This document shows, in pieces, positions 5,286-50,854 of a stretch of DNA of 64,000 nucleotides (position 1 is the stretch's first letter; every line of letters begins with the position of its first letter). The DNA lies in assembly GCA_963790025.1 (NCBI GenBank), contig CAWBMP010000003.1, forward strand, positions 96,001-160,000. Direction: 5' to 3'. The DNA comes from Nitrospirota bacterium (GTDB lineage Bacteria > Nitrospirota > Thermodesulfovibrionia > Thermodesulfovibrionales > Dissulfurispiraceae). The translations under genes were made by a program, and so were the position numbers. The notes beneath the pieces are model-generated. The model was given only the letters and a program-made list of their open reading frames with translations, searched no databases and was not told the DNA's origin.

Positions 5286-5359
5286 TAGTGTCATTGTCAG
5301 TGATTAGTGTCAGTTTAAGGATTTATCTGACACTGACACTTATTTCTCCACTGACACTT
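5286..5359. repeat. Inverted array of about 6-nt units (agtgtc / gacact) at ilvB-ilvN junction
   Basis: agtgtc attgtc agtgat tagtgtc ag ... ct gacact gacact ... cact gacact. Confidence 0.65.
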
Positions 5360-7094
5360 ATTTTACTGCCTTGAGTTTTTTCTCAGGCTTCTTCTCTTCT
5401 TCAAACATCATGGAGTCCAGCGCTGCACCGGCGGGGACCATGGGATAAACCTTCTCCTTCCAATCAACAACAAAGTCCATGAACACCGGCCTCTTTATCT
5501 TGAACGCCTCTTTGAGAACAGGTTCGACTTCTTCAGGTTTGGTGGCACGCAACCCGACTGCTCCATATGCATGGGCAAGTTCAACGAAGTCTGGCGTGAT
5601 GTCAATGTTAAGATCGGTGTGCGAGTAGCGCTCCTGATAGAAAAGCTCCTGCCATTGTCTCACCATCCCGAGGTAGCGGTTCTTCAGGATAGCAACTTTT
5701 ACAGGAAGTTTGTAAATTACGGCTGTTGCCAATTCCTGGATATTCATCTGAATACTGCCGTCACCCGCTATATCGATGACGAGTTTGTCCGGGCAGGCCA
5801 ACTGGGCGCCTATGGCAGCGGGCAAGCCGAAACCCATGGTGCCGAGGCCGCCGGAAGTCAGTAAACGCCTGGGCTTGTCGAATTTGTAAAACTGAGCTGC
5901 CCACATCTGGTTTTGACCGACCTCAGTGGTGATAATGGCGTCGCCCTTTGTAAGCTCGTAGATCTTCTCTACGACAAACTGCGGCTTGATCACATCTTTG
6001 TTATAGGTATAAGTCAGCGGTCTTTCTTTTTTCCAGAGCGCTATCTGTTTCAACCAGGTTTTTCTGATTTCGTCCCAAGGCTCCTTTATGTCTTTTTTAA
6101 GCACTTTGTTCAAGACAGTCAGGACATTCTTGACATCACCAACGATGGGAATGTCAACCCTCACGTTCTTTCTGATCGAAGTTGGGTCAATGTCGATGTG
6201 TATAATCCTGGCATGGGTGGCAAAGCCATCGATCTTTCCTGTAACGCGGTCATCGAACCTCATGCCTATTGCTATCAGAAGGTCGGATTCCTGAACGGCC
6301 TTGTTTGCAAAAAAAGTGCCGTGCATGCCGAGCATGCCCAGCGAAAGCTCATGCGTGCCGGGGAAACCGCCCAGGCCCATAAGAGTCATGGTGACCGGAA
6401 TATTGGTATGTTCGGCAAGCTCACGCAATTCGTGAGATGCTTCAGAGAGGATACAACCTCCGCCTGCAATGATGACCGGTTTTTTGGCCCGCGCTATTTC
6501 GTGTGCGGCCTTCTCTATCATCCACCGGTTGCCCTCATATGTTGGGTTATAGCTCCGCATTTCGACCTTGTCGGGCCAGACAAAATCAGCTTTGGCGGAA
6601 GTTACATCCTTGGGAAGGTCAATCAGCACAGGGCCAGGACGTCCTGTAGTCGCTATATGGAACAATTCTTTTAACTGTGCCGCAAGTTCTTTCACATCTT
6701 TTGCAAGGACATTGTATTTTGTGCACGGCCTGGTTATGCCGACTATGTCGGCCTCCTGAAAGGCATCGTTCCCTATTAAGACTGTCGGCACCTGGCCTGT
6801 GAGGACAACAACCGGTATAGAGTCCATGGAAGCATTTGCAATACCTGTTACGGTATTGGTGGCTCCTGGGCCGGAAGTTACAAGCACAACACCGGGTCTT
6901 CCGGTTGCTCGCGCGTATCCGTCAGCAGCATGGACAGCGCCCTGCTCATGCCGTGTCAGTATAAGTTTCAGGTCCTTGTCATCATGGAGAAGGTCAAATA
7001 TATTGAGAATTACGCCGCCCGGGTATCCGAAAATATGTTTAACGCCGAGTTTCTTGAGGGACTCAAGTATTATTTCAGCACCTGTCATTTTCAT
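5358..7094 (-). CDS. ilvB: Acetolactate synthase large subunit, biosynthetic
   Basis: [28 protein letters not shown] ThDP motif, LGMVRQWQ. Confidence 0.97.
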
Positions 7095-7341
7095 GATTTA
7101 ACTCCTTGCGTTTTAAACTGCTCGATCGGACGGACCCCACCAGAAGTAGCCAACAGTAAGGGCCTTAAGCCGGTCTTCTAAGCCAAAAGTCAAAGATTTT
7201 CAGCGCCGCCTCATCCGTATGAAACCCTAAATTAACATAATTTTTGCAACTTTTCCATATTTATATTTAGATATTTATCACATTTCTGACCCTTGCCTCT
7301 TGTCTTTTTAGATGCTATCATTTGAATAACGACATGTGACT

Positions 7342-7370
7342 TTGACAAATTTTGCCGTTTGTGATTTAAT
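7342..7370 (+). promoter_or_regulatory. Sigma70-type promoter of pyr operon
   Basis: TTGACA (7342-7347), 17 bp, TTTAAT (7365-7370) with extended -10 TG. Confidence 0.7.
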
Positions 7371-7377
7371 AATCGTG

Positions 7378-7477
7378 CCTTTAATGATAGCCCAGTGAGG
7401 CTAAAAGGAGTATCCCTTGAATTATTATAAAATAATATGCACAGGCCTTCTCCTGGAAACGGGGGGAGGCTTTTTTT
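7378..7477 (+). promoter_or_regulatory. PyrR-binding RNA element and attenuator terminator
   Basis: CCTTTAA...TAGCCCAGTGAGGCTAAAAGG closely resembles the PyrR binding loop (ARUCCNGNGAGGYU); terminator gccttctcct-ggaaac-ggggggaggc-T7 at 7445-7477, directly upstream of pyrR. Confidence 0.88.
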
Positions 7478-8026
7478 ATGTCTGCAATGATAAAAGAACT
7501 GCTTAATAAAAAAGATATCGAACGGATACTTTCAAGGATCGCCCACGAAATTATCGAAAAGAATAAAGGGACAGAGGGGTTATGCCTTGTCGGCATCCAG
7601 CGAGGAGGGGTGCATCTTGCCGCAAGGCTTTCCTTAAAAATCAAGGACATAGAACATACCGAGATTGAGGTTGGGTCGCTGGATATCTCGCTTTACAGGG
7701 ATGACCTCAGTATAAGAAAGCACCACCCCATTGTCAGAACAACCAGTATCCCATGCGAGATCAGTAAGAAGAAGATTGTCCTGGTTGATGATGTACTTTA
7801 CACAGGACGCTCAATAAGGGCCGCAATGGATGCGCTAATGGATTACGGCCGGCCGGCCCAGATTCAGCTTGCGGTACTTATAGACAGGGGACACAGGGAA
7901 CTGCCTATACGTCCTGACTTTGTGGGCAAAAACATTCCCACCTCACGGTCTGAGAACATAGAGGTACAGCTTGAAGAGGACGGTATGGAAGATAAGGTGA
8001 TTATACAGTCATCGCCGGAGGAATAG
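7478..8026 (+). CDS. pyrR: Pyrimidine regulatory protein / uracil phosphoribosyltransferase PyrR
   Basis: [45 protein letters not shown]. Confidence 0.97.
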
Positions 8027-8033
8027 CTGAATT

Positions 8034-49003: not shown

Positions 49004-49187
49004 AATAGGGTCTTCCTCCAAGGGTTTTAAATAAGATCGATACTCTAAACTATATCATTATTTTTCAATGAAAAACAATAGTAACTCATTCTTAAAAAAT
49101 CTTCATAAGCACTTACTTGTCTTTTTTTTAAAAAATGTAATCTCGTCTTTTCAAATAGTTAACTGAAATGTAGGTATTTTGCCCAAA

Positions 49188-49230
49188 TGTGACAGGCATG
49201 TGACGATTTTCTGACATTTTGGAGACATTT
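49188..49230. repeat. Four GAC(A/G) direct repeats at exact 11-bp period
   Basis: gaca 49191, gacg 49202, gaca 49213, gaca 49224; on the minus strand these read as TGTCA/CTGTCAC-like units. Confidence 0.5.
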
Positions 49231-49303
49231 AGTTGTCGTATCATAGTGGAAGGACAGAACAACACTGTAACTATTTGTTTTACCTACATTCGATCGGGAC
49301 ATA

Positions 49304-49331
49304 ACTTTACATAATATATCTTATCGGACAT
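49304..49331 (-). other. dif site (XerC/XerD chromosome dimer resolution site)
   Basis: Minus strand ATGTCCGATAA-GATATA-TTATGTAAAGT, 11-6-11 architecture matching dif (E. coli GGTGCGCATAA-TGTATA-TTATGTTAAAT); AT-rich intergenic location. Confidence 0.88.
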
Positions 49332-49448
49332 AATAAATAAACAAGGAATGTTGGTAACATGTTATCAACCACGTTAATAATTGTCAGGTAAAAGCGTACT
49401 TGCTGGGTTCTATCTGTGATGTATAAGTTATAGGCAGATATAAAAAGA

Positions 49449-50729
49449 TTAAATGTTAATGGGTTCTCGATAATTATTGGGGATTCCCAGCGCTTGATTA
49501 TTTTTATATCCTGTAACCCTAATATTTATCAAGGTTTCTTGCCTATGATCAAACCCATCGGCCAGCAAAACCTTGATATAATTGGCGCTCGTGCCAACAT
49601 ATCCCTCAAAGCCCTTATTTTCGACTATTATTTCGAGTATCTGATTGTAATGCCTTAATATATAATCCTTTCTTTTGGAATCACCGATACCTTTTAAAAT
49701 ACTAACCCTTTGTTTTTTTAGGTTTTCTGAGATTTGATTATTAAATGAGGCAGCCCTTGTTCCCGGTCTTGACGAGTAAGGGAAAACATGAATATATGAA
49801 AATGGCATCGCCTCAATAAAACTGCGAGTCTTAAGGAAGCTCTCTTCATCCTCCCCTGGAAAACCCACAATTACATCCGTACCAATTGCTATATCAGGGA
49901 ACCTTTTAACAATTACTTGTATTTTACCTGTATAATCCCGTGTAGAATATGTCCTATTCATGCTCTTAAGTATAGAATCATCACTGCTCTGAAGTGGAAT
50001 ATGAAGGTGATTGCAAACTCTTCTATCGCTTATTACATCAAGCAGTTCATCATTTATTTCGTTAATTTCGAGTGAACTAAGCCTTATTCTCTTTATATTT
50101 GTTTCTTTAAGTATTCCTTTCAGTAAAAATGCAAGTGATTTCTTGGGGTCAAAATCAAGACCATAAGTTCCGAGGTGTATCCCGGTGAGGACAACCTCTT
50201 TGTATCCGGACTCATGATAGTTGTCTATTTTACGGATTATATCTTTATAAGATTCACTTCTGGATATTCCCCTTGCCATGGGAATAGTGCAATAACTGCA
50301 GAAATAATTGCATCCATCCTGCACCTTGACAATCGGCCTATGCCTTGAATAACCAGAGATTTTCTGGGGTAGTGCGATATTAATGAAGGAAGTAGTTGAA
50401 TAAGAGCCGAGTAAGTTACTGATAAAACGGACTTTATCGCTATTTTTAATTACATCTATCGTATCTCCAATCAGTTTTATTGAATCTGAATTCAGCTCGG
50501 CGTAACAACCTGTAACTATCACTTTAGCACTGTTTCTTAATGCCTTATGTATCAATTGTCTTGATTGCTGGTCTGCCTTGGCAGTTACCGCGCACGTATT
50601 AATGATACACAAATCAGGAGATTCAGAAATAGTGACTATATCATGACCGGCGCACTTCAACGCGCCTTCAATACTAAGGCTTTCGGCCTGATTAGTTCTG
50701 CACCCGAGAGTTACAATAGATACCTTCAT
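49449..50729 (-). CDS. mtaB: tRNA t6A37 methylthiotransferase MtaB
   Basis: TLGCRTNQAES, INTCAVT, KVQDGCNYFCSYC, LTGIHLGTYG, HVFPYSSRPGT. Confidence 0.92.
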   Translation of the reverse strand: MKVSIVTLGCRTNQAESLSIEGALKCAGHDIVTISESPDLCIINTCAVTAKADQQSRQLIHKALRNSAKVIVTGCYAELNSDSIKLIGDTIDVIKNSDKVRFISNLLGSYSTTSFINIALPQKISGYSRHRPIVKVQDGCNYFCSYCTIPMARGISRSESYKDIIRKIDNYHESGYKEVVLTGIHLGTYGLDFDPKKSLAFLLKGILKETNIKRIRLSSLEINEINDELLDVISDRRVCNHLHIPLQSSDDSILKSMNRTYSTRDYTGKIQVIVKRFPDIAIGTDVIVGFPGEDEESFLKTRSFIEAMPFSYIHVFPYSSRPGTRAASFNNQISENLKKQRVSILKGIGDSKRKDYILRHYNQILEIIVENKGFEGYVGTSANYIKVLLADGFDHRQETLINIRVTGYKNNQALGIPNNYREPINI

Positions 50730-50740
50730 GTAATTATTTA

Positions 50741-50854
50741 AAACATGGCTAAAGGCAAAGGGCTAAAGGCAATAGGCCAAGTAACGCAGGAAATACAAAA
50801 TAGAAATCTGCTCTTTGACCTTTTGCCTTTCGCCATTTGCCTTTAGCCATGTTT
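50741..50854. repeat. Inverted array of 7-nt units (ggcwaaa / tttwgcc) at miaB-mtaB junction
   Basis: aaacatggctaaaggcaaa (50741-50759) perfectly inverted at 50836-50854; further units gggctaa aggcaat aggccaa / tttgacc ttttgcc tttcgcc. Confidence 0.8.

Follow-up and report, generated by a model that had tools for sequence, protein, structure and literature searches.

What are the inverted arrays of short tandem repeats that stand at gene junctions in a Nitrospirota bacterium of the Dissulfurispiraceae (assembly GCA_963790025.1), and how did they come to be there? The stretch considered here, which we call the window, comprises 64,000 nucleotides (C3:96001-160000) of a 3.45-Mb genome that is 98.8% complete. 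A first-pass annotation of the window had described eight sites at which a few tandem copies of a short unit, a spacer and the reverse-complement array make up a hairpin, and had proposed that the hairpins are either signals in mRNA or empty sites of a system that inserts cargo genes. We find that they are probably non-autonomous mini-forms of a mobile cassette: a pair of inverted arrays, built from a 6-9-nt unit, surrounds a gene for a four-helix-bundle (4HB) protein (PF05635/TIGR02436) whose clade matches the unit.

Inverted short tandem arrays were found at all eight sites, at or a few bases from where they had been placed, and five of the eight rank within the window's 25 longest inverted repeats. 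The shared architecture is clear by folding and by our detectors at seven of them, with folding z scores of -3.6 to -10.8 compared to 200 dinucleotide shuffles; the element at 44485-44520 is weak (z -1.7, equalled in 14 of 200 shuffles) and was picked up by neither of our two detectors. A scan of the whole window, including coding regions, recovered the seven clear elements and nothing further. Nothing in Rfam matched within the window, and upstream of pyrR or ilvB (window 7094-7478) there was no Rfam PyrR-binding or ilv leader match at the gathering threshold.

The same architecture recurs throughout the genome. The first detector reported 181 elements genome-wide, with 47 on contigs C3 and C5 compared to 0 in each of two shuffles, and the second found a periodic inverted repeat in 204 of 1,937 gene gaps, compared to 0 of 1,937 shuffled gaps. 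Chance is thus ruled out as the source of the arrays. The union of the two detectors, 240 elements, includes some false positives. Among the 204 elements, the repeat period is 7 in 117, 6 in 48 and 8 in 25, and the 5' arm is purine-rich in 187, whichever strand the element is on; loops are mostly 10-70 nt. The units had been taken to be specific to each locus; however, 167 of the 204 elements sort into 11 unit families (37 are unclassified) that recur throughout the genome, and thus the units are specific to families rather than to loci. The elements do anchor at stop codons, as had been noticed in the window: among 189 gene 3' ends that face an element of a classified family, the stop lies within an arm in 77 cases and an arm begins 0-15 nt after the stop in 65. 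An element is present in 34 of 251 convergent gaps but in 12 of 309 divergent gaps (p=4e-5), and one was detected directly after 6 of 49 tRNA calls, several more being seen by eye, mostly within tRNA clusters.

Two genes of the genome belong to PF05635. They lie in a manB-manC-ugd-like operon, each within arms of the unit AGGYWD, which also makes up the window element at 17802-17905 and an insert in the 23S gene. A profile of the two 4HB proteins matches PDB 2GSC (XCC0516, five chains) with an E value of 7.6e-34. The annotation had suspected that such arrays flank 4HB genes in other bacteria, and this link was borne out. With bracketing defined by arms that exceed the best of 100 shuffles, 22 of 27 4HB loci in the genus are bracketed (two sub-cut-off matches excluded), as are 44 of 57 full-length loci in the family (63 of ~150 matches examined) and 58 of 71 loci taken from numerous phyla (of 80, 9 were dropped for a contig edge or the lack of a stop). 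When the bracketing test was applied across the genome under study, convincing tandem arms in a cargo geometry were seen, by eye, at the two 4HB genes alone. Other bracketed genes were rejected as cargo; most have a separate hairpin on each side, and a few are low-complexity matches.

At least some hairpins are deletion derivatives of cassettes. Comparison of orthologous junctions (G000 denotes the genome under study and other G numbers the genomes of relatives) places the stages side by side. At manB-manC, the full cassette is present in G000 and G003, G002 and G004 carry a hairpin whose loop opens on 4HB start codons, and the loop of the G006 hairpin corresponds to the stop plus trailer of the cassette in G003. 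Following a TPR gene, a cassette is present in G002 and G009, and the G000 hairpin contains 29 codons of the N-terminus of a 4HB protein of the same clade (30.1 bits; shuffles reached 5.4 at most). In G014 and G165, cassettes are cut after approximately residue 46 with their arms present, and three further truncated 4HB copies are without arms. Derivation from an element that carries a gene between identical ends, by loss of its interior as in a miniature inverted-repeat transposable element (MITE), was therefore found at two junctions in the genus and in two partial cassettes in the family, not for the bulk of the elements. At other junctions whole cassettes differ in presence: G002 and G001 carry them where the G000 junction is -3 and 0 nt, and after tRNA-Val there is a 7-mer 4HB cassette in G007 (C15, L042), a gene-less 6-mer hairpin in G000 (C2:471909-471968) and a short spacer in G009. 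The idea that the hairpins are mainly empty cargo sites is not supported by these comparisons, since true empty sites are without any arm; some hairpins retain the start or stop of a lost 4HB gene, which makes those hairpins the remains of cargo rather than landing pads.

The unit in the arms goes with the clade of the 4HB protein. The GxxGFxxLxVWQ clade is associated with GGC- or GGT-core heptamers in Nitrospirota, Verrucomicrobiota, Bacteroidota, Omnitrophota and others, and other 4HB clades pair with other units (the 4HB tree is a quick tree, used descriptively only). AGGCWAT, which forms the window element at 37077-37181, is the unit of the GKxGF clade of 4HB cassettes. Over 52 heptamer loci, protein identity is correlated with unit similarity (rho 0.54), and across phyla the correlation is 0.536 (1,141 pairs), compared to a permutation maximum of 0.20. 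The density of the 6-mer arrays follows the presence of the cognate clade. Among 68 family genomes, the median density of AGGYWD arrays is 34 per Mb in the 8 that have the cognate clade, but 0.74 per Mb in the 60 that do not; the counts take in the few matches that the arms of each cassette itself contribute. All four genera with a contrast agree in direction (within-genus p=5e-4).

The window elements, whose coordinates are collected in Table 1, show how rapidly such sites change. The window contains the housekeeping operons ilvBN, pyrRBC-carAB, tat, uvrA, glnD-tamB-tamA/bamA, proS and miaB-mtaB; gene calls are from our own simple caller, and start positions are approximate. The statement that the elements stand at gene junctions, most of them inside operons, has to be amended for the one at 41275-41368, which lies within a gene, and for the two at 17802-17905 and 44485-44520, which lie between converging genes.

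Table 1. Array hairpins of the window and the leader that one of them forms (positions in the window)
Feature	Position	Strand	Remarks
AGTGTC-family (6-mer) hairpin	5287..5358	.	arms ~5287-5313 and 5327-5358
GCGTWCW-family (7-mer) hairpin at pyrC-carA	10245..10346	.	
AATGRGTR-family (8-mer) hairpin	14732..14813	.	spans carB stop; FmdE-family gene next
AGGYWD-family (6-mer) hairpin	17802..17905	.	between converging 92-aa open reading frame and heptaprenyl-diphosphate synthase component I
AGGCWAT-family (7-mer) hairpin	37077..37181	.	spans glnD stop; tamB next
CACAGAG-family (8-9-mer) hairpin	41275..41368	.	within 5' coding part of Omp85/POTRA (TamA/BamA-like) gene 41256-43997
Likely signal peptide of TamA/BamA-like protein	41256..41378	+	by eye and hydropathy
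Small weak AATGRGTR-family hairpin	44485..44520	.	between converging genes; one stop codon per arm
GGCWAAA-family (7-mer) hairpin at miaB-mtaB	50733..50861	.	overlaps miaB stop

Congeners differ at all eight junctions, which may be empty or decayed or carry the same or another unit, and the presence/absence variation anticipated for these sites is thus real. The hairpin at 5287-5358 separates the ilvB stop from the ilvN ribosome-binding site in an operon on the - strand. This junction is empty in G001, G002, G005, G006, G007 and G008, with GGAGG directly after the stop; in three species a block separates the two. G009 has a decayed AGTGTC array at this junction, and G003 and G004 have a different 7-mer. 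The left arm at 10245-10346 starts within pyrC, extends the PyrC C-terminus and provides its stop, and in all nine congeners the pyrC-carA junction is 5-26 nt, with a remnant of the left arm in G004 and G009. After carB, G004 has another 8-mer hairpin and none was seen in G002, G003, G005, G006, G007 or G008; at the 17802-17905 junction, G003 and G004 carry a 7-mer hairpin and G006 and G008 are empty. The glnD-tamB element is full in G004 and G008, a short remnant in G002 and G006, a left arm alone in G003 and missing from G007. The element at 50733-50861 is the strongest hairpin of the window, with 40-nt arms that are 90% complementary; the miaB-mtaB junction is 2 nt in G002, G003 and G004, and G007 and G008 have remnants. 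The weak element at 44485-44520 corresponds to a junction of at most 7 nt in G002, G003, G007 and G008. In the orthologues of window 44509-45544 in G004 and G006, its place is taken by long hairpins (164 and 195 nt) that are not periodic and belong to other families. At one site, five species of 85-89% identity each have a different unit, and newer arrays are nested in the loops of older ones.

Array hairpins are also found in the ribosomal RNA operon: one separates 16S from tRNA-Ile, another separates tRNA-Ile from tRNA-Ala, and a third lies within 23S. The 23S insert is an AGGYWD hairpin (C2:711158-711242, repeated in the second operon); the 23S is 3,029 nt long, compared to 2,925 nt in the model, and the distance between the anchors around the insert is 150 nt, compared to 44-53 nt in 9 of 30 order-level loci. 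In 8 of the 30, this 23S helix carries arrays of several different units, as judged by eye. An extra stem-loop in an rRNA helix that varies among relatives, the mark of an intervening sequence (IVS), is thus provided by the 23S copy alone. None of the eight window elements is in rRNA, and neither they nor the 23S copy contain an S23p/PF05635 open reading frame (ORF). RNase III is encoded in the genome, and its cleavage of the 23S insert is plausible. In nine 23S stems, G-U mismatches number 18 and A-C mismatches 11, a difference that is not significant.

Some arrays are translated. An in-frame array is present in the carA linker of G036, G029, G035 and G016, and in the trpE linker of G000 with one unit and of G004 and G006 with a different one; further in-frame copies in G000 are in folC-like, nifEN-like and other genes (names read from the sequences). 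Moreover, 174 genes start near an element, and for 37 of these there is an open frame that starts before the element ends. We judged 17 of the 37 to encode export signals, by eye and hydropathy, and with one D,D-carboxypeptidase the total is likely ~18. By Pfam, the proteins with such leaders are LolA, TolB, FlgI, FlgH, FlgA, FliP, three outer-membrane efflux proteins and an RND adaptor, together with S11 and M16 peptidases and SpoIID, Omp85, TPR, ankyrin, transglutaminase and MgtE_N proteins. The most hydrophobic window begins within the element for 13 of these 17 candidate leaders. The remaining 20 open frames include cytoplasmic genes, for which the upstream start is probably spurious. Thus, some hairpins are now likely read as export signals of proteins.

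The TamA/BamA-like gene of the window provides a likely example. Its start codon overlaps the tamB stop and the hairpin falls in its first 37 codons, such that the purine arm gives a K/R-rich n-region and the end of the loop plus the pyrimidine arm an F/L/C-rich h-region. Of 22 genomes, 4 have an array hairpin in this N-terminus, no two with the same unit, and the others have plain signal-like N-termini. Orthologues of FlgI, FlgH, FlgA and LolA have array leaders with species-specific units in most congeners and plain ones in distant relatives, as seen by eye. In general, 5' arms encode K and R codons and 9% stops and 3' arms encode L and F, with a mean hydropathy of 1.22 for 3' arms compared to 1.02 for shuffles; composition therefore largely explains the signal-like coding of the arrays.

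We propose that the array hairpins probably derive from 4HB cassettes as follows. From one congener to another, the same junction may hold a full cassette, a hairpin of arms alone or no arm at all, and hairpins persist at stop codons, in tRNA and rRNA spacers, at the tip of a 23S helix, in protein linkers and in signal-peptide regions. The stem would promote deletion of its own loop, converting a cassette to a hairpin; the nearly precise excision of Tn10 is a parallel for loop deletion that is favored by a stem. Small gene-less units would insert directly as well, since the in-frame copies in carA, trpE and folC could hardly have passed through a stage with a stop-bearing gene. Sites would then be filtered for harmlessness, as suggested by the stops and K/R codons of the purine 5' arm and the mostly stop-free hydrophobic runs of the pyrimidine 3' arm, and some arrays would have been recruited as leaders. 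A cognate 4HB pentamer may bind its own tandem units and so license their spread, and RNase III may cut some stems, as it does in the Coxiella IVS. A broader proposal, possible but rather doubtful in our estimation, is that these elements are a mobile class without a transposase, in which an Avd-like 4HB pentamer reads a clade-specific 6-9-nt code in the arms and drives the spread of cassettes and mini-elements alike; rRNA IVSs and the heptamers of Xanthomonas, cyanobacteria and Beggiatoaceae would be its footprints, and the pyrimidine arm a recurring source of signal peptides.

Several observations weigh against a cassette origin. No reverse transcriptase (PF00078) was found in G000 at its 98.8% completeness, no mobilizing enzyme was found for the hairpins, and 4HB proteins are not known to have a catalytic activity. 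No target-site duplication could be resolved among the closest relatives, which are only 85-89% identical in DNA, so that boundaries are blurred (a metagenome scan with carA gave nothing above 83% identity). There are no near-identical whole elements, the best pair having ~82% identity, and 114 loops have nothing in common beyond nested REP-like repeats and a few 14-24-nt matches, unlike those of a copy-and-paste MITE. A detectable 4HB remnant is present in 1 of 240 elements here, and cognate loops show no enrichment of short 4HB start/stop motifs (0 of 42). Most unit families have no cognate gene in this assembly; for AAGTAAA no clear cassette was seen, and for AGCAGTA and GCGTWCW only weak ones. 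The pairing of unit and clade could arise from physical linkage alone. The density relation is also imperfect: array densities reach 28 and 24 per Mb in G004 and G001, where no cognate gene was found, G023 has the gene yet only 7 arrays per Mb, and the cognate match in G016 contains an internal stop. Two other units are rare even in genomes with their cassette and are missing from G043, which is rich in the 6-mer; thus the density effect is specific to the unit, and a cassette is not enough for a burst. The cognate 6-mer family is no younger than others (median arm identity 0.79). Finally, mismatches read on the mRNA strand comprise 211 G-U and 192 A-C (p=0.37); without an excess of G-U there is no sign of selection on an RNA stem, and the earlier suggestion that the stems are kept as processing or stability signals in mRNA gains no support from the wobble pairs.

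That suggestion could be revived if 4HB proteins were repeat-binding RNA regulators, with the hairpins as binding, processing or stability sites in mRNA that are selected by the host. TRAP is a case of a ring protein on repeats, the stems are stable and RNase III is encoded, and the elements lie in transcribed spacers and are rarer in divergent gaps; a density that tracks the cognate protein is also expected from a pair of regulator and site. We consider this unlikely, given that G-U pairs are not significantly favored over A-C either overall or in the 23S stems, that sites turn over between species of 85-89% identity, with five units at one site in five species, that efficient cutting would damage the in-frame copies in single-copy housekeeping genes and that most unit families are without a cognate gene here. 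The arrays might instead be born locally, through slippage and template switching where the sequence is weakly constrained, A/T-rich and prone to form hairpins, with 4HB genes as passive passengers that enter such arms by recombination or remain between them. This would fit the unrelated loops, the lack of near-identical copies, the nesting of new arrays in old loops, the mostly compositional hydrophobicity of the 3' arm and the fact that arms match their own partner barely better than other family members (the own partner is the best complement in 13 of 163 elements, compared to ~5 by chance, with one family driving the excess). However, it leaves unexplained the recurrence of a few units genome-wide, the match of unit to 4HB clade across phyla, the within-genus density link, the 4HB ends in some loops and the whole blocks at ilvB-ilvN, which lie between stop and GGAGG where the empty allele has no spacer; we therefore regard a purely local origin as improbable.

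Two better-known kinds of element were weighed as well. REPINs, hairpins built from repetitive extragenic palindromic (REP) elements, are similar in size and hairpin build according to the available text of PMC3116915, and the genome has 11 Y1 transposase matches, such that the hairpins could be REPINs or classical MITEs that are moved by Y1/RAYT or DDE transposases with 4HB as ordinary cargo. The flanks of the Y1 loci, however, carry other ends (GGGGTCAGG-type and others) and no tandem arms, no terminal motif is common to all families beyond A-rich flanks, no target duplication is resolved at the divergence of these relatives, and a true MITE-like family in this genome keeps 84-89% identity over its loop whereas the array hairpins do not; this origin is very unlikely. 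A role as bidirectional intrinsic terminators would be consistent with the enrichment between converging genes and with the T runs, at least 6 T in 8 nt after the stem, at 26 of 119 co-oriented elements, a minority that qualifies the earlier statement that U-tracts are missing. That statement holds for the other 93 of 119, which are without a strong T run, and loops of mostly 10-70 nt and elements inside ilvB-ilvN, pyrC-carA, tRNA clusters, the rRNA spacer, the 23S gene and coding regions make termination so improbable an explanation that it can nearly be set aside.

Other repeats and repeat-flanked genes share the genome and its relatives. Several RAYT-like genes among the 11 PF01797 loci have inverted ends of their own (GGGGTCAGG-type, GACGGTTCTATTT-type). 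A REP-like palindrome (GGATTCCCGC type) is nested in several array-hairpin loops of G000 (C2:665554-665731, C2:722375-722505, C4:925200-925330, C4:1127499-1127665 and C5:127826-127988), and such loops serve as havens for other repeats. A separate 165-nt MITE-like element at window 3351-3515, with 29-nt terminal inverted repeats, has ~20 genome copies, of which the full-length ones are 84-89% identical; it is missing at the same junction in congeners, and a G006 copy lies within an array-hairpin loop. At L047 (G002:C5:269654-269968), a 4HB gene lies between long same-strand direct AGGACTG-type arrays with no inverted arm within 150 nt, and L063 (G003:C5:1870-2175) is a weak PF05635 match, probably a true Avd, with repeats on both sides like those of a diversity-generating retroelement (DGR) and no arms. 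GxxExxY genes had also been suspected of being flanked by such arrays. None was found in this genome; the link held in 2 of 40 family genomes (G023 and G043), where GxxExxY genes at three loci (L155, L156 and L157) have 9-10-mer inverted arrays. The 5' end of L157 has a CACAGAG-like hairpin, of the family of the window element at 41275, and the CACAGAG family may come from GxxExxY cassettes instead of 4HB ones. Apart from repeats, window 27672-28368 holds a MazF-like toxin ORF and an upstream 128-aa ORF beside a Fur-like gene and katG, and a tRNA-Sec is encoded at G000 C2:313123-313220.

Orphan inverted heptamers (in Xanthomonas) and rRNA intervening sequences are already known. In the Coxiella burnetii 23S IVS, heptamers lie at the 5' stem, adjoining the start codon, where RNase III cuts, according to the available text of PMC4990558. 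There, as here, a stem of terminal inverted repeats encloses a 4HB ORF (PMC4990558); the 23S gene of G000 contains an array hairpin that lacks an ORF and consists of the same unit as the 4HB cassettes of G000. As far as that text goes, the elements here differ in that more than 200 copies lie outside rRNA, nearly all ORF-less and in ~11 unit families, and in that the 23S insert is near the 5' end rather than in helix 45. X. campestris has 70 GGGAATC arrays in close inverted arrangement, and the Nostoc repeats are GGGGAYT, in the available part of PMC4692102; these too are degenerate inverted arrays with the purine strand just after stops, and are rare between divergent genes. One row of the supplement (PMC4692102, supplement 2, row 15) places four GGGAATC-type units 6 nt after the bccP stop, overlapping the start of the 4HB gene XCC0516, with X. 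axonopodis alike and no partner arm tabulated. This array gives independent support to the pairing of arrays with 4HB genes, as do the heptamers of the Coxiella IVS. As available, that paper reads the heptamers as G-quadruplex motifs unconnected to mobile elements and does not remark on the link to XCC0516. Compared to those described there, several units coexist here, most are not G-rich and many are translated; by inspection the units have GG at most or an occasional GGG, which falls short of the G tracts of a quadruplex.

Cyanobacterial short tandemly repeated repetitive (STRR) heptamers are a comparison for arrays of the TAACTGA type. The TAACTGA repeats of Beggiatoaceae resemble the arrays described here in being heptamers that lie at gene junctions, where one strand has a stop in every frame and the other has an open frame; in the part of PMC4679880 available, MacGregor described the stop-rich and open orientations, not signal peptides. 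Unlike the elements here, they are described in that part almost only as direct repeats, with no source element and no mention of four helix, intervening or S23. REPINs likewise occupy extragenic space as hairpins of two arms and a spacer, and every repeat family is linked to a cognate gene that the same repeat flanks (PMC3116915, in part); compared to that account, the arms here are tandem arrays rather than palindromic REPs, the cognate gene is an Avd-like 4HB gene rather than an HUH transposase, and spacers are unconserved. RAYT was rejected as the cognate enzyme: 150-nt flanks of the 11 Y1 loci lack tandem arms (four flanks began inside the ORF owing to late start calls), and no Y1 gene was among those recovered by the genome-wide bracketing test. 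Rickettsia palindromic elements and other MITEs also insert in frame as hairpins into unrelated housekeeping genes (PMC10969869, in the portion available). Compared to that portion, there is here no fixed element sequence, no target duplication was resolved among relatives of 85-89% identity, the elements are preferentially used as likely signal peptides, and different units occupy the same gene in sister species. PF05635 resembles Avd of DGRs in sequence and structure, as stated in the available text of PMC10053308; unlike DGRs so described, this genome has no reverse transcriptase, and the DGR-like locus L063 has no arms. An identity as DGR, REPIN or classical MITE was thus rejected on the defining features (reverse transcriptase missing, no RAYT flanks and no shared interior). 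By analogy, the system may work like a RAYT-REPIN pair and be built like an ORF-bearing IVS. A literature search, mostly of open papers, returned no publication that joins 4HB genes to tandem-array hairpins, heptamers, IVSs or signal peptides.

If the array hairpins do come from 4HB cassettes, the sporadic heptamers of bacteria and ORF-bearing rRNA IVSs would have one origin, and PF05635, a family whose structure is solved, would have a role; the pairing of unit and clade opens a direct test of binding. For annotation, array elements distort start calls and C-termini. For these bacteria, the elements point to a rapid turnover of signal peptides, in which the leaders of LolA, TolB, FlgH, FlgI and the TamA/BamA-like protein appear to be written by repeats and to have their units swapped in sister species.

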